Shown in pieces: positions 23,611-61,537 of a stretch of 64,000 bases of DNA. Every line of letters starts with the position of its first letter. Position 1 is the first letter of the stretch. The notes beneath the pieces were generated by a model that saw nothing but the letters and a program-made list of their open reading frames with translations, was not told the DNA's origin and did no database searches. Source of the stretch: Treponema sp. (GTDB lineage: Bacteria; Spirochaetota; Spirochaetia; Treponematales; Treponemataceae); NCBI GenBank assembly GCA_014804005.1, contig JAAVAP010000016.1, positions 106,751 through 170,750 on the forward strand, given 5' to 3'. The translations under genes were made by a program, and so were the position numbers.

Positions 23611-23774
23611 AAAATCAGCCTCCTGAAATTCTATATTAAGCCCGCAGGAAATTTCAATTTCTGCGAGTTTAATTTTATAGTTATAGCAATTCTGGGAATT
23701 TGTCAAGAGGAAACTACGATGAGAGAATGAAGATTTTTCATTATGTGAGGCGTTGTATAGATGCGAACATAAAC

Positions 23775-24224
23775 TTAGTTGAACAGAAAAAAGAAATTAT
23801 CGTTCTTTAAGTTGATTTTTTCCTTTCCGCAGACAATCTTAAAATCCCCGAGCAAAGTCAAAAAAGGCTCGCTATCATCAGGAGAAGTGATTTCTTCTAT
23901 TCCTACTGAACGCGCGGAAAATTCGATGGAATATTCTTCCGCAATTATTTTGTACTTTCCATTTGAAATTTGTATGGATTTTAATTTACTATAAAATCTT
24001 TCGCTACCAATTTTATAATCGCAAGTGATGTCCCGACCTTCAAGAATTTCATTTATTACAATTGGCATAACTTTTTTCAAAGTAATGTCTTTCTGGCTTG
24101 TTGGAAAAGGAACTGGCTTTATATTTTTCTCCTGCGCGTCAAGCGCATTAAACAGCGTTTCAATCTGCTCTTCTGACAACGAACGCAATACTTCGTTCGT
24201 TATTTTGTCGAAAGGCGTTTTCAT
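23775..24224 (-). CDS. Hypothetical protein (orphan, AT-rich gene)
   Basis: GGAGGAAACGA precedes the ATG at 24224 (MKTPFDK...). No motif was recognised. The sequence is Lys/Ile/Glu-rich. Confidence 0.5.
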   Translation of the reverse strand: MKTPFDKITNEVLRSLSEEQIETLFNALDAQEKNIKPVPFPTSQKDITLKKVMPIVINEILEGRDITCDYKIGSERFYSKLKSIQISNGKYKIIAEEYSIEFSARSVGIEEITSPDDSEPFLTLLGDFKIVCGKEKINLKNDNFFFLFN

Positions 24225-24328
24225 TCGTTTCCTCCACAAGTAATTTTACATAATCAGTATATGTCTGAAATTGTATTGTTGCTCATCAGGGCGTTCCTCC
24301 GTTGTTTTATTTTGTGCACGGCTCATAT

Positions 24329-24358
24329 ATTATAGCAGATTGCGATAAAAAAATTCAA
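24329..24358 (-). promoter_or_regulatory. Near-consensus sigma70 promoter reading towards the orphan gene
   Basis: On the minus strand: TTGAAT (24358-24353), an 18-nt spacer, then TATAAT (24334-24329). This lies about 100 nt upstream of the ATG at 24224 and about 35 nt from the edge of the tandem array. Confidence 0.4.
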
Positions 24359-24390
24359 CATCAAACAAAAAGCAAAGCCGTTTCCCCACG

Positions 24391-24628
24391 CTCTTACATG
24401 AAAGAACTCCCAACACGTACATTTAAGACAGTCTTTAATGTACATAAAAGGGTCTCCAACACGTACGTTTAAGAGTGTCTTTAATGTACATAAAAGGGTC
24501 TCCAACACGTACGTTTAAGAGTGTCTTTAATGTACGTTAAAGGGACTCCAACATGTACGTTTAAGACCGTCTTTAATGTACATAAAAGAAACTCCAACAT
24601 GTACATTTAAGAACGTCTTACATGTAAC
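24391..24628. repeat. Tandem array, 5 copies of a 46-bp unit (10 half-units of 23 bp)
   Basis: The ctccaac motif occurs at 24407, 24454, 24500, 24546 and 24592. GTAC cores occur at 24417, 24440, 24463, 24486, 24509, 24532, 24555, 24578 and 24601, a strict 23-bp spacing. Degenerate copies lie at 24394 and 24624. Confidence 0.9.
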
Positions 24629-25016
24629 AAAATAACATCAATTATTTTGTTGTCAAAGTCAATTTTTTTACAAAAATTCATATCATATTATATATAAGAC
24701 TGCTTGTCCAAAAACTAAAAAAGTCTGACAAGAAAAAAATGGAAAGCATGATTATATTTTCAGCAAAAGAGAGATATATAAAATACAGGAGGCAACGCCC
24801 ATGATATGCGAAACAAAATCGGCTTGAGCAAAACAAAACTTTCTTTAAGAAAGCAAAAGGGGCGCGCTCAGGCTGGGCGGAATTTGCCATGCAAATTTCA
24901 TAGAACAAGGTCAATCGCTTGACTGTCATTGGTCAAAGATGTTTTAAGCGATTTTCGTTTCCTTGTCTACAAAAAAAACGACCCTTAAAAAACTTTTTTC
25001 ATAACGAGGTGAAAAC

Positions 25017-25796
25017 ATGGAAAAGAAATTCGACAATTCGTTTGTCAACCTGCGCGAAGAAGCGGGCGGGCGCGTGTCCGTCAAGCTTCAGCCGAACATG
25101 CTCAACAACTCCGATCCGTCGCAGTATTACGGAAAGGTCACACGGGTGACATATTCAAACCAAAATCTTCTCGACATGGTGGCGGAGGAGCTGCCCGACA
25201 TGTCCATAGGAAAAATCACGGACGTGATGACTTCCTATACCGCCGTGTTGCGGAGGACGCTCGCCAAAGGGTGCGCATGCAAATTCGGAACGCTGGGCAC
25301 TTTCTACATCGCCTCGAGAGGCACTACGGAAAGTGCGAACGGCAAGACCGGGCTTACGATAAAGTTCACGCCGGAAAAAAACTTGCATGATGCCGTGCAA
25401 AAAATCGAAATTGCGGAATCCGGCTATGCCGCGCCCAAAATTACGGTTGACAGCATAACGGACATAGCAAGGAACGCGACCGACGGCGCGCTCAAACTGG
25501 GAACTTCGGTGAGCATACGCGGCAACAACTTGCGAATCGGAGGAACGGAGAGCGGAATTTGGTGCGTGCCCGTAGACGACGAGGGAAAATTCACGGGCGA
25601 CGATACGGATTGGAAAGAGGTGGCGAGAGACTTCTTCATCAACACTTCTAAGAATCTTGTCTTTACACTTCCCGAAGGTCTTGAATTTGGAAGAGAATAT
25701 TGCTTCGTATTCAGGACACGCCTCGTCGGATATTCCAAATATGAGCGAAAGGTCATATTGCAAGCCACAACGCCCAGCTTCAAAGTGGTGGCGTGA
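25017..25796 (+). CDS. HU-fold DNA-binding domain fused to a C-terminal Ig-like domain (DUF4469-like architecture)
   Basis: The N-terminal part resembles bacterial HU-like proteins (...IGKITDVMTSYTAVLRRTLAKGCACKFGTLGTFYI). The C-terminal 110 aa or so has a beta-rich Ig-like pattern (VSIRGNNLRIGG...LVFTLPEGLEFGREYCFVFRT). The family assignment is from memory. Confidence 0.55.
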   Translation: MEKKFDNSFVNLREEAGGRVSVKLQPNMLNNSDPSQYYGKVTRVTYSNQNLLDMVAEELPDMSIGKITDVMTSYTAVLRRTLAKGCACKFGTLGTFYIASRGTTESANGKTGLTIKFTPEKNLHDAVQKIEIAESGYAAPKITVDSITDIARNATDGALKLGTSVSIRGNNLRIGGTESGIWCVPVDDEGKFTGDDTDWKEVARDFFINTSKNLVFTLPEGLEFGREYCFVFRTRLVGYSKYERKVILQATTPSFKVVA

Positions 25797-25846
25797 TTGA
25801 CTTTGTGGAGCAAGTAAAATACCCACTTTGCGAGCCCAACGAGCTT

Positions 25847-25880
25847 TCCGTGCCGCATAGCGCGGCACGGATTTTATTTC
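25847..25880. terminator. Rho-independent terminator between convergent genes
   Basis: 10-bp perfect stem tccgtgccgc/gcggcacgga with a 5-nt loop, then ttttatttc. Confidence 0.7.
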
Positions 25881-25906
25881 TATCCTTTGTTTCGAGCGGA
25901 ATTTCC

Positions 25907-27484
25907 TTATTGAAAGACAAGAAGCGTTTTTTCTATCCTTGCGATGGCGCGTTCTTTTCCCAAAATCAAAATCGAGCCGATGAGCGGCGGACTTACGCGG
26001 CTTCCCGTGGCGGCCATTCGGATTGGCATCATAAAGTCGCCGAGTTTTATTCCCAATTCTTCGGCATGCTTTTTCGCGCGTTCCTCTGCCTCTTCATGGG
26101 AAAGATTGAAAATCTCTTCCACGAAAATTTTCGCGCGTTCAAGCACTTCGCGAGTTTTTGCCTCATCGAGCTTTTTGGGAATGATTTCGGTCTTTGGAGG
26201 AACGGAAGGTTCGGTGAACAAAAAGCGCACCATTTCCGCGGCATCCGTCAAATATTTCAAGCGTTCCTTTATGAGCGGCATCAATTTCATAAGCGAGGCC
26301 TTCACGTCTTGGCTCGTCATTTTCATCGAAGAATCAACACAGAACGGCTCGCCATTTTCGTTAAGCGCGATGCCCGAATATTCAGGGCCAACCTTCGGCT
26401 TGGGTTGCGGATTTTCGGGATTTATTTCCAAAGCCGCATCTCCCGTTCCCGTGATGAAAGGCAAAGTCCATTTGTACAATTCCTCGTCGCTCAAAAGACG
26501 AATGTACGCGCCGTTGTAATATTCCAATTTCTTGTAGTCGAATACGGCCGGGGCTTTGTTCAAATGTTCCAGCTTGAACGCCGCCGCCAATTCAGGAAGC
26601 GAATAGAATTCCTTGCCTTCTTCGTAAGAGCAGCCGAGCATCGCGACATAGTTTACGATTGCCTGCGGCAAATATCCGCGCGCGCGGAATTCGTTCAAAG
26701 AAGTAGAGCCGTGGCGTTTCGAAAGCTTTTTTCCGTCCGCTCCGTTCACCATCGGAAGGTGGCAGAATTCGGGATGCTCCCACCCGAACGCGCGATACAT
26801 CTGAACATGAAGCGGCGTGGAAGGAATCCATTCTTGAGCGCGCATCACATGGCTTATTTTCATAAAATGGTCGTCAACGATATTCGCCAAATGATACGTG
26901 GGAAATCCGTCGCTTTTTAAAAGAACTGGATCGGGTGAAATGTCCTCGTTTTTCCAAATTATGTCGCCGAGCAAATGGTCGTGGAATTTTGTCTCGCCTT
27001 CAAGCGGCACTTTCAGGCGAATCACATGCGGCTTTCCGGCATCCAAATTAGCCTTGATTTCTTCCGCAGTAAGATGCCGGCAATTGCGATCGTATCCCGG
27101 AGCCATTTTGTTTTCAGTCTGGATTTTTCGGATTCGCTCGAGGCGTTCCGCGTCGCAAAAGCAATAGTACGCCTCGCCTTTTTGTACAAGTTCTTCGGCA
27201 TATTTTTTGTAAAGTTCGAAACGCTCGCTTTGAACATAAGGTCCATACTCGCCGCCTTTTTCGCCGCCTTCATCCCATTCGATTCCAAGCCAGCTCATCG
27301 TTTCATAAAGATTTTTGACATATTCTTCGCCATAGCGCGTGCGATCCGTATCTTCAAGGCGCAGAATGAATTTTCCGCCCATGGACTTTGCAAAAAGACA
27401 ATTGAAAAGCGCGGTGCGCACGCCTCCGATGTGTTGCATTCCAGTTGGCGATGGCGCGTATCTCACTCGAACTTCGTTTGACAT
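25907..27484 (-). CDS. gltX: Glutamate-tRNA ligase
   Basis: HIGH-type motif PSPTGMQHIGG and KMSKS-type motif KLSKRHG. Start placed at MSNEVRVRYAPSPTG (ATG at 27484, with GGAGAA upstream). Confidence 0.95.
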   Translation of the reverse strand: MSNEVRVRYAPSPTGMQHIGGVRTALFNCLFAKSMGGKFILRLEDTDRTRYGEEYVKNLYETMSWLGIEWDEGGEKGGEYGPYVQSERFELYKKYAEELVQKGEAYYCFCDAERLERIRKIQTENKMAPGYDRNCRHLTAEEIKANLDAGKPHVIRLKVPLEGETKFHDHLLGDIIWKNEDISPDPVLLKSDGFPTYHLANIVDDHFMKISHVMRAQEWIPSTPLHVQMYRAFGWEHPEFCHLPMVNGADGKKLSKRHGSTSLNEFRARGYLPQAIVNYVAMLGCSYEEGKEFYSLPELAAAFKLEHLNKAPAVFDYKKLEYYNGAYIRLLSDEELYKWTLPFITGTGDAALEINPENPQPKPKVGPEYSGIALNENGEPFCVDSSMKMTSQDVKASLMKLMPLIKERLKYLTDAAEMVRFLFTEPSVPPKTEIIPKKLDEAKTREVLERAKIFVEEIFNLSHEEAEERAKKHAEELGIKLGDFMMPIRMAATGSRVSPPLIGSILILGKERAIARIEKTLLVFQ

Positions 27485-27543
27485 AATGTTCTCCAAATTT
27501 TGATTTTTGTTCAGTATAGCAGAAAGCAAGAAAAAATGCAATG

Positions 27544-60346: not shown

Positions 60347-61537
60347 ATGCGCTACAGCATTTTCGAGTATTCACAGGAAAAGCTTCTCGCCCTTGGCCTT
60401 GACGTGACGGACGCGCTGCTCCTGAACTGGTTCGCGAATTTCTTCTGCGGCAAGATGGAAAAGCAGATGTTCAAGGATGCCGACGGAAAAACGAAAATCT
60501 ACGGCTGGATAAAGACATCGAAAGTCATCGAGGACCTGCCCGTAATCGGCATCACGAGCGAAAAAGGCATTCGGAAGCGGCTCGACACGTTCGTCGAGAA
60601 AGGCATCCTTGACAGGAGAACTTTGTCCACACACAACGGGAAAAAATCGTACTACAGGACGACCTCAATCTACGAGTCGCTCATCAACACGACCGCAATC
60701 CAAAGAAACCATGAAAAAGAAAACGCCGCCTCGGAAAAACCCCGCGCGGGAGCGAAAAGCGAAAGCGCGGACGGAAACTGGCAAAGGAACGCCAGTACCT
60801 TTGCAAACTCCGAAAATGTCCGAAACGACCCGCAAAGGAACTCCAGTACCTATGGGCAAAGGAACGGCAGTACCCTTGCGCAAGGGAACTCCGGTTCCCT
60901 TGCTTTAAACGATTCCTTGACCAATGATAAATTCGTTAAGGATATTGCTGCTGCCGCCGAAAGGCATTTCGGCAAGAACGCTTTTGACCAGGGCTTCGCC
61001 CAAAAAGCGGCGGCGTTTCTTTCCTCACAGAACGTCTCCGACATCGACTTTTATTTCGCATTCATCAAGAACAAGGTGTCCGAAAAAATCTCGCTGTCAA
61101 AAAGCCCGGTCTCAAGCCCCCGCGGACTGGCGTACACGCTCTTCTTCCAGACCGACATAGCGCAAGAAGCAAATGACTGGCAGCAGCAGCTTTTTCTTGA
61201 AAGGCAGAGAGAGGCTGAACGGAAAGCCGCGGAGGAAAAGCGCAAGGTCGGCTGCCCCGTCTGCGGAACGCGCTTTATTCCAAAGCAGGACGGCTCCTGC
61301 CCCAAATGCGAATTCAGCGTGTCGCGCTTCCAAGACGAGGCGGAAATCCAAATCCACTCGCGGTTCGTAAGGCTTCCCGAAAAGTCAAAACAAGACTATG
61401 AGAGACGGCTCCGGCAAATTTATAAATTTGACATCGCAAAATTCATGGCGATGAGCAAGGAGGAAAAAGACGATTTTAGGTCGAAACAAAAAACTGACAA
61501 GAGCGTCCTTGACAGGGAGTTCGGACTGATTACGTAA
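60347..61537 (+). CDS. Putative replication initiator/organiser: N-terminal winged-helix-like domain, 8-aa repeat linker, C-terminal CxxC...CxxC zinc ribbon
   Basis: The N-terminal 110 aa or so resemble DnaD/phage replisome-organiser wHTH domains (tentative). The repeats are QRNASTFA/QRNSSTYG/QRNGSTLA/QGNSGSLA. The zinc ribbon is CPVCG...CPKCE. Confidence 0.45.
   Translation: MRYSIFEYSQEKLLALGLDVTDALLLNWFANFFCGKMEKQMFKDADGKTKIYGWIKTSKVIEDLPVIGITSEKGIRKRLDTFVEKGILDRRTLSTHNGKKSYYRTTSIYESLINTTAIQRNHEKENAASEKPRAGAKSESADGNWQRNASTFANSENVRNDPQRNSSTYGQRNGSTLAQGNSGSLALNDSLTNDKFVKDIAAAAERHFGKNAFDQGFAQKAAAFLSSQNVSDIDFYFAFIKNKVSEKISLSKSPVSSPRGLAYTLFFQTDIAQEANDWQQQLFLERQREAERKAAEEKRKVGCPVCGTRFIPKQDGSCPKCEFSVSRFQDEAEIQIHSRFVRLPEKSKQDYERRLRQIYKFDIAKFMAMSKEEKDDFRSKQKTDKSVLDREFGLIT
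60781..60903. repeat. Four 24-bp imperfect-palindrome repeats (one isolated, three in tandem)
   Basis: R1 60781-60804 gcaaaggaacgccagtacctttgc. R2 60832-60855 gcaaaggaactccagtacctatgg. R3 60856-60879 gcaaaggaacggcagtacccttgc. R4 60880-60903 gcaagggaactccggttcccttgc, which has 10-bp perfect arms. Confidence 0.85.

Follow-up and report, generated by a model that had tools for sequence, protein, structure and literature searches.

Comparative analysis links a phased 23/46-bp repeat array of gut Treponema to an HU-Ig gene

Introduction

Phased operator arrays between divergent promoters are a known kind of regulatory element, and so are CapH/CapP cassettes located beside defence genes. Here, we analysed an array of five 46-bp tandem repeats in Treponema sp. 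(assembly GCA_014804005.1, contig JAAVAP010000016.1, positions 106,751 to 170,750; this whole stretch of 64,000 nucleotides is called the window below, and positions are counted from its first letter). The array lies upstream of a gene for a protein which combines an HU fold with an immunoglobulin-like domain (HU-Ig). According to our comparison with related loci, the array is the left-hand part of a cassette of about 1.55 kb of gut Treponema (window about 24328-25880), and it follows the HU-Ig gene rather than the adjacent orphan gene or the repressor gene that intact cassettes carry.

In the OR and OL regions of phage lambda, cooperative binding takes place at 17-bp dyads which stand 6-7 bp apart (23-24 bp centre to centre) between divergent promoters. 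The Treponema array likewise consists of 17-bp dyads at 23-bp spacing between divergent promoters. However, it has ten sites instead of three, which lie between and not over the promoters, symmetric and hybrid sites alternate in it, and the window cassette lacks a cognate repressor gene, with no homologue of the helix-turn-helix (HTH) repressor in the 64 kb. Multiple phased repeats at about one or two helical turns, on which a protein filament is nucleated, are also found in the iterons of R6K and P1 and in parC of R1 and pSK41. In contrast to these plasmid elements, the array is located on a chromosomal cassette without Rep or Par genes and has no plasmid or phage relatives.

The CapH/CapP systems are related to ImmR/ImmA and DdrO/IrrE. 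The CapH protein of Escherichia coli forms tetramers; its site in the shared divergent promoter region is 22 bp long and precedes the -35 element (bioRxiv 10.1101/2022.04.27.489752). The Treponema relatives are organised alike, with an HTH gene and an HExxH peptidase gene divergent from defence genes; defence genes are found left of the array in L005, L012, L019, L031 and L032 (related loci are given L numbers), whereas the window has an uncharacterised orphan gene instead. CapH/CapP regions have one site, whereas the Treponema cassettes have 4-12 phased 23-bp sites in an array that is independent of the repressor type. Moreover, the Treponema cassette always adds HU-Ig as a third gene, and the window lacks both capH and capP.

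The HU-HIG/DUF4469 proteins have been described as a family of gut Bacteroidetes which has no conserved operon partners and is unlikely to act as a sequence-specific factor (PMC5499826). Its Ig-fused subclade (BVU_2165, structure 4FMR; Burroughs et al. 2017, PMC5499826) has the same HU-HIG and DUF4469 domains as HU-Ig of the window; unlike the clade as described, the Treponema members have a partner pair and a phased array. A search of one literature library found no paper mentioning DUF4469. In a cultured Treponema, T. denticola, TDE_2259 combines an HU domain (PF14848) with PF14734, the two domains also seen in HU-Ig of the window, and could serve as a model. Its mRNA drops by log2 5.2 (about 36-fold) on deletion of the XRE-family regulator TrtA (PMC12724145), whose gene is not adjacent. 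The multi-site 23/46-bp lattice, its independence from the repressor and its constant link to an HU-HIG/DUF4469 gene are new.

Results

Ten phased sites in five repeat units

The units run head to tail throughout the array: Tandem Repeats Finder (TRF) reports a 46-bp period at 24395-24626 (5.0 copies, 88% matches, score 308) and, nested within it, a 23-bp period at 24417-24626 (9.1 copies). GTAC occurs nine times at a step of exactly 23 bp (starts at 24417, 24440, 24463, 24486, 24509, 24532, 24555, 24578 and 24601), which accounts for 9 of the 82 GTAC in the window. Both results agree with a preliminary description of this DNA, made from the sequence alone, which had reported five contiguous 46-bp repeats and nine strictly spaced GTAC. 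The autocorrelation at lag 46 is 0.70 (z = 15 against shuffles), and units 2 and 3 are identical. The degenerate copies announced for both ends were seen as CTTACA... at 24393 and as ...GTCTTACA followed by TGTAAC at 24600. An inner palindrome, TTTAAGAnnGTCTTTAA, is exact in four units, has 2 mismatches in the fifth and is absent from the rest of the window, with 0.25 matches expected by shuffling. Its 27-bp form GTACrTTTAAGAsnGTCTTTAATGTAC had 0 matches in 100 shuffles. Within the window, the 27-bp palindrome GTACrTTTAAGAC-n-GTCTTTAATGTAC and the hybrid half-unit are restricted to the array, and pattern searches of the 64 kb found no array-type sites elsewhere. A CRISPR array had already been dismissed, rightly so: the units are contiguous, the sequence between palindromes recurs from unit to unit, and there are no unique spacers.

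We chose the unit register that gives maximal dyad symmetry. In this register, each 23-bp unit consists of a 6-bp spacer (yGTACr; CGTACG or TGTACA) and a 17-bp site (8+1+8), and the array holds ten sites, of which both end sites are degenerate. Two types of site, symmetric (TTTAAGAC-n-GTCTTTAA) and hybrid (TAAAAGGG-n-CTCCAACA), take turns along the array, which therefore has a 46-bp super-period. Since the dyad-maximising register separates a 17-bp site from a 6-bp spacer, GTAC is placed in the spacer and not, as had been proposed, in the core of the site. The spacers are also the least constrained part in relatives, where CAACTG, CTGCTG or TTGCAA substitute while the 17-bp sites stay.

Array and HU-Ig gene stay together in relatives

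Upstream DNA was available for 14 independent HU-Ig loci, and in each of them the best autocorrelation lag is 23 or 46 bp (z = 4-18). Across relatives the arrays have 4-12 phased 23-bp sites, and at the 14 loci both the orientation relative to the HU-Ig gene and the alternation of site types are constant. The HU-Ig proteins of these loci fall into groups A, B and C, with a between-group identity of about 52-62%. The arms of the symmetric site co-vary (TGAAAG/CTTTCA in L013 and L025 versus TTTAAGAC/GTCTTTAA in the window). The hybrid site has its counterparts in L005 (TTAAAGAC-c-ATCCAAAA) and L012 (TTATAGAC-t-ATTAAAAA), and groups A and C have the hybrid site together with its spacer in common (TTAAAGAC-c-ATCCAAAA-CGTACG versus TTATAGAC-t-ATTAAAAA-CGTACA; consensus TTAwAGAC-n-ATymAAAA plus a cGTACr spacer).

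In the genome collection, all relatives of the HU-fold protein come from metagenome-assembled genomes of uncultured Treponema, and the metagenomic samples include one labelled pocket-mouse. Identical orphan and HU proteins are encoded on a 164-kb contig (L001) in the same layout, with four units versus five in the window, a difference of one unit that may be real or an effect of the assembly; other contigs break inside the array. HU homologues with 82-83% identity stand in a quite different context, flanked by a PLD/Snf2 helicase gene (left) and clpB (right). Even so, a 46-bp array of 5.7 or 3.7 units precedes them at about 390 nt, and the stretch from array to gene is fully alignable. In the window, the 3' end of the array is 389 nt from the HU-Ig start codon (25017), as the preliminary description had estimated, and its suggestion of the HU-fold gene as a partner is supported by the comparison, in which the array and the leader of about 390 nt accompany the gene into other contexts. 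The length polymorphism that it had proposed to look for was found as well (5 versus 4 and 5.7 versus 3.7 units among close relatives). At the loci of more distant HU homologues (52-59% identity), an array with a 23-bp period is followed first by an XRE-type HTH gene, then by a small gene for an HExxH protein and finally by the HU gene.

The full cassette thus consists, in order, of a leftward promoter (P_left), the array, a rightward promoter (P_right), a gene for a CapH-like HTH repressor, a gene for a CapP/ImmA-like peptidase and the HU-Ig (HU-HIG/DUF4469) gene. Homology between cassettes ends at P_left on one side and at a terminator on the other; to L013, it starts at window 24328, at the -10 element of P_left. 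On the right, the cassette probably ends with the terminator. A near-consensus promoter about 35 nt from the array and directed toward the orphan gene (open reading frame (ORF) 23775-24224) had been noted before, and our promoter scan finds P_left at this place (24358-24329). Direct reading of the sequences shows equivalent extended -10 promoters on the left side of the array in L005, L012, L018, L019 and L031. The P_right relic of the window aligns to TTGACA-N4-TGGAAAG-N7-TATATT of L013, L025, L021 and L031; it is degraded, with CTGACA and a spacer about 5 nt longer than in intact cassettes.

Among the left neighbours of the cassettes are the HKD+Snf2 helicase of L005, type IIG restriction enzymes (L019, L032), HsdM+Fic (L012) and PbeA (L031, E = 8e-162); the right neighbours include gltX, clpB, AIPR and moxR. 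In relatives, the genes into which P_left reads are mostly defence genes (Table 1). Some genomes contain two cassettes: CAMWIU (L013 and L019) and JAFLSR (L015 and L018). The cassette is relocatable and is found at different chromosomal sites, usually beside defence genes.

HU-Ig has matches to PF14734 (53 bits, cut-off 22.6), PF18291 (27.7 bits, cut-off 26.2) and PF00216 (27.5 bits). Its best match in the Protein Data Bank is 4FMR both by sequence and by fold (Foldseek E = 1e-8, the HU half being of low confidence); the predicted structure has a mean pLDDT of 59 and is confident in the Ig half only.

The array outlasts the regulators

An intact cassette of the same HU-Ig group as the window is found in L013, with the array at 360-474, the HTH gene at 704-1015, the HExxH peptidase gene at 1020-1481 and the HU gene from 1668. 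The window aligns to it in two blocks with about 850 bp missing between them (blastn; window 24539-24758 to 372-576, and 24780-25014 to 1434-1665 at 82%). At the right junction, a 3' remnant of the peptidase gene has survived, which was identified by the C-terminus of the L013 peptidase (...KIKEVLPMIRETKSA). A mini-ORF (MICETKSA*) with a strong AGGAGG in front might be mistaken for a leader peptide, but it represents the last eight of the 15 surviving peptidase codons, and its apparent ribosome-binding site is former peptidase coding sequence.

The HTH protein of relatives (about 103 aa) has capH as its best PADLOC match (8.5e-14), and the HExxH peptidase has weak matches to Peptidase_M78 or capP. 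Adjacent capH-like and capP-like genes are present in L013, L025, L031, L010, L016, L032, L012, L018 and L023, whereas both are deleted in the window, and no repressor or peptidase homologue was found anywhere in the 64 kb. The statement of the preliminary description that no neighbouring gene explains the array therefore stands only because the window has lost the CapH-like and CapP-like genes which normally separate the array from the HU gene.

Regulator loss in the window, L005-9 and L014 has a common right junction. This deletion-bearing form is found in four or more lineages of species rank, whose HU-Ig proteins are 81-88% identical, and all of them keep 6-7 of 8 dyad matches. In a neighbour-joining tree of HU-Ig, the intact L013 nests inside the deletion-bearing group; a single ancient deletion was not retained as the explanation, and the deletion may go back to one event with recombination or to several events. 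Independently, the regulators were lost in L019 (group C), where a peptidase remnant of 50 aa stays. A further variant, L034 (4001-5460)/L035, has kept the repressor, lost the peptidase and has a 363-nt gap before HU-Ig; its 23-bp array is kept. In regulator-deleted loci, the dyad symmetry of the arrays equals that of intact cassettes.

Array sequence and repressor type do not go together. The arrays of groups A and B differ, although both groups have the same (type-1) repressor, with no difference in the recognition helix. Group C has an unrelated HTH protein (18-30% identity) and an unrelated peptidase; the repressors of groups B and C are thus unrelated, yet these groups have the palindrome TTTTAAT-s-ATTAAAA in common, and the group A half-sites are TkwAAGAC. 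Since the array survives both the deletion of the regulators (at least twice) and their exchange for an unrelated pair, it appears to be independent of the repressor. At every type-1 locus (groups A and B), the P_right core (TTGACA-N17-TATAyT) contains TGGWAAG repeats and is also directly followed by them; we regard these repeats as a candidate operator of the type-1 repressor, distinct from the array. The motif is also present in L036, a Firmicute element without HU whose repressor is 55% identical and in which autocorrelation found no 23-bp array.

Table 1. Features of the window and of defence genes at related loci (L031, L005, L019, L032 and L012 coordinates refer to those loci).
Feature	Position	Strand	Basis or remark
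Orphan gene, 149 aa	23775..24224	-	downstream of P_left, outside the cassette
P_left, sigma-70-type, TTGAAT-18-TGcTATAAT	24329..24358	-	10/12 consensus matches with TG; left cassette edge
Array, five 46-bp super-units = ten 23-bp units	24393..24628	+	repeat detection, autocorrelation
Dyad-symmetric 17-bp site TTTAAGAC-a-GTCTTTAA	24422..24438	strand-neutral	6-7/8 dyad positions match; pattern confined to array
Further dyad-symmetric sites	24468-24484, 24514-24530, 24560-24576, 24606-24622 (degenerate)
Hybrid 17-bp site TAAAAGGG-t-CTCCAACA	24445..24461	+	register analysis and pattern search
Further hybrid sites	24399-24415, 24491-24507, 24537-24553, 24583-24599
P_right relic, CTGACA ... TGGAAAG (24740-24746) ... 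TATATT	24725..24758	+	alignment to relatives
Peptidase 3' remnant, 15 codons (IQEATPMICETKSA*)	24783..24827	+	blastn to L013, translation
Conserved leader with conserved hairpins, before HU-Ig gene	24828..25016	+	11-sequence alignment, consensus fold
HU-Ig gene, 259 aa, HU-HIG + DUF4469	25017..25796	+	Pfam, fold match
Terminator hairpin and T-run	25848..25880	+	window 25840-25878 vs L013 2553-2592, 90%
Defence genes read from P_left: PbeA with SMC-like gene	L031 1-3221	-
Defence gene read from P_left: HKD+Snf2 helicase	L005 1-3229	-
Defence gene read from P_left: MmeI-like type IIG enzymes	L019 1455-3245 and L032 990-3234	-
Defence genes read from P_left: HsdM+Fic	L012 201-2308	-

Discussion

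Our comparison gives the array a constant partner. HU-Ig is the most likely binder because it is the sole protein of the cassette which always accompanies the array, a circumstantial argument. The geometry, with dyads of 17 bp that recur every 23 bp, 6 bp between them and strong sites paired with weak ones, suits cooperative side-by-side binding of dimers or of dimers of dimers. We favour, with about even confidence, a reading in which HU-Ig forms a cooperative filament on the array and thereby tunes or insulates P_left and P_right. Each 17-bp site would be bound by one dimeric protein, and adjacent dimers would contact each other across the 6-bp spacers, so that a strong symmetric site and a weaker hybrid site pair into the 46-bp unit. 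The outcome would be a cooperative nucleoprotein filament of about 230 bp which sets or insulates P_left, the promoter of the cargo (here the orphan gene), and P_right, the promoter of the cassette's own operon. In intact cassettes, HU-Ig would act downstream of the DNA-damage-sensing CapH/CapP switch, from which it would be uncoupled in the window. More tentatively, the Ig-fused HU-HIG (DUF4469) protein might be a sequence-specific filament former with the array as its cognate lattice; as the output stage of the DNA-damage-sensing CapH/CapP module, it would switch the neighbouring defence genes via P_left. Of the three options offered in the preliminary description (iterons, partition centromeres and a cooperative operator array), the operator array fits best.

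Several points weigh against binding by HU-Ig and a function in promoter control. HU proteins are usually without sequence specificity. Compared by eye with the arm motif of HU, the predicted arm of HU-Ig seemingly lacks the intercalating proline of HU and IHF. The related loci were reached via HU-Ig, repressor or orphan proteins and arrays free of HU-Ig were not sought; such arrays could exist, since every locus was found through a cassette or orphan protein. The HU-less L036 is a single control element. The promoters are consensus predictions. Copy number differs among close relatives, and the length of the array is therefore not tightly constrained. Moreover, a promoter-like site right of the array (TTGACA-16-TATTTT with TG, 24656-24629, minus strand) points into it and could transcribe its minus strand, although this site is specific to the window and not kept in relatives. 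Finally, according to a published reading of 4FMR, the nearest solved relative, the Ig domain narrows the HU clasp, and classical DNA binding is therefore unlikely (PMC5499826).

Among the alternatives, it seems unlikely but worth weighing that the array is a multi-site operator of the CapH-like repressor, supplied in trans by a paralogous cassette, with tetramers bridging pairs of 23-bp sites. HTH dimers typically have 17-bp dyads set 6 bp apart, CapH forms tetramers and has its 22-bp site ahead of the -35 element (bioRxiv 10.1101/2022.04.27.489752), and the ancestral cassette carries such a repressor gene right beside the array. Some genomes, CAMWIU and JAFLSR, do hold a second cassette, and TGGAAGAC-like half-sites in some arrays are loosely similar to the TGGAAAG motif. 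However, the array sequence varies independently of the repressor type, the regulators have been deleted independently at least twice and replaced once without loss of the array, and the window has no repressor homologue. It is another motif, in the P_right core, which is conserved together with the repressor, also in the array-less and HU-less L036.

Could the array of the window be a functionless relic, a neutral minisatellite homogenised by unequal crossing-over? The deleted regulators and the degraded P_right would fit such a decay, and so would the identity of units 2 and 3 and the variable unit number between near-identical strains (five in the window, four in L001). The units also diverge faster than the leader, with about 67% identity between window and L005 (a hand comparison of consensus units) as against about 82% for the leader between window and L013. 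We nevertheless consider this quite unlikely: in each of the four or more lineages with the deletion-bearing form, phasing and alternation are kept and the dyads match at 6-7 of 8 positions, and the independently deleted L019 (group C) has retained its array as well. A neutral minisatellite would be unconserved and without internal grammar, whereas phasing, alternation and orientation are kept in 14 loci.

The units may also be read as core-type recombination sites with 8-9-bp arms and a 6-bp overlap, at which a recombinase supplied in trans moves the cassette or alters the number of units. ATTAAAAA-CGTACG-TTTTTAAT or GTCTTTAA-TGTACA-TAAAAGGG would then represent arm, spacer and arm, a layout which is characteristic of dif or lox-type sites, and the cassette does occur at differing loci in related genomes with variable unit numbers. 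This is improbable, as ten tandem core sites would be unprecedented, no recombinase is encoded within or beside the cassette at any locus, and no array-like sites flank the cassette ends.

We treat the array as a DNA-level element because the flanking promoters point away from it and no RNA family matches; the array region, as the spacer between divergent promoters, is predicted not to be transcribed. It is very improbable that the array is instead transcribed as a tandem-hairpin RNA or forms single-stranded DNA hairpins or cruciforms. Its fold has an energy of -79.4 kcal/mol (z = -7.9 against shuffles), changes in the arms are compensatory, and the leftward promoter-like site at 24656-24629 could drive a transcript. 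However, this site is not conserved, whereas the divergent promoters directed away from the array are. Furthermore, every stem has a T·T mismatch in its middle, hybrid units and the units of groups B and C are not hairpins in the same register, and no Rfam family reaches its threshold in the array. In the whole window, tmRNA alone passes the Rfam thresholds; matches in the array are sub-threshold noise.

The least probable reading, to which the two remaining options of the preliminary description belong, takes the array as replication iterons or a partition centromere (parC/parS-like) of an integrated or extinct replicon: iterons and parC arrays do resemble it in having 8-12 phased copies of a repeat about two helical turns long, but the setting is chromosomal (tmRNA, gltX, rnhB, der and ptsI nearby), no Rep, ParA, ParB or ParR was found among the domain-scanned or precomputed neighbour genes of the window and related loci, and searches of 72,556 plasmids and 50,697 phages, like two scans of viral contigs, gave no match.

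The link between HU-Ig and the array gives the HU-HIG/DUF4469 proteins, a family without known function which is abundant in gut Bacteroidetes and also present in Treponema, conserved partners (CapH/CapP-like DNA-damage regulators), a defence setting (restriction, Snf2-helicase, Pbe) and a DNA element with a site grammar. Together, these make the function of HU-Ig directly testable with a 230-bp probe. CapH/CapP-type cassettes, in turn, can hold a second layer of cis-elements that is independent of the repressor, and they repeatedly lose the sensor pair and keep the array and HU-Ig. If HU-Ig indeed reads the array, this would be the first function for a large gut-bacterial family and a third tier in CapH/CapP regulation.

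Leader, orphan gene and chromosomal setting

The leader of about 190 nt before the HU-Ig gene shows high conservation across 11 loci and has a hairpin with compensatory changes (alignment columns 55-79). A leader hairpin, GGAATTTGC-cat-GCAAATTTC, is altered on both arms in relatives and cleanly deleted in L025 and L031. In addition, the leader holds an invariant 8-nt inverted repeat (AATCGCTT/AAGCGATT). These elements could act in the mRNA as a leader structure, or in the DNA as an internal promoter or operator. Two ORFs of the region were set aside: that of 83 aa at 24678-24929 (minus strand) was treated as non-coding because of frame-breaking indels in relatives, and that of 375 aa at 25793-26920 (plus strand), which has no domain match and lies partly opposite gltX (25907-27541, minus strand), is probably a shadow ORF.

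The orphan protein has no match in Pfam, PADLOC or NCBIfam. Its homologues adjoin GH3 with other upstream genes or follow an MNT-type nucleotidyltransferase gene, in all cases lacking the array and the HU gene, and homology of the orphan block stops at about 24261. The orphan gene had also been suggested as a partner of the array, and on these grounds it was ruled out. An orphan copy (at least 90% identical) and the L005 cassette lie apart in one genome, if both are on the same contig. In L027-L030, the orphan homologue directly follows a gene of 106 aa for an NTP_transf_2 (MNT-type) protein, which is missing from the window. Because of this order in relatives, the orphan may represent the HEPN-like half of a toxin-antitoxin system.

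The window is chromosomal, with tmRNA, gltX, rnhB, der, ptsI and a GH3 glycosidase gene. No tRNA was found near the array, and the idea of a tRNA/att site was therefore discarded. The interval between GH3 and gltX (window about 23700-25900) resembles a variable island; in L026, a related Treponema, Fic, DUF3791 and HAD-like genes are located upstream of the orphan where the window has the cassette. Compared to a first-order Markov expectation, the whole window is strongly depleted in TTAA (0.30x) and GATC (0.33x) and more weakly in GGCC (0.40x) and CTAG (0.47x), which suggests restriction avoidance; 10 of the 89 TTAA fall inside the array. A separate tandem repeat (24 bp x 3, 77% matches, TRF score 83) is located at 60831-60903 near the far end of the window.

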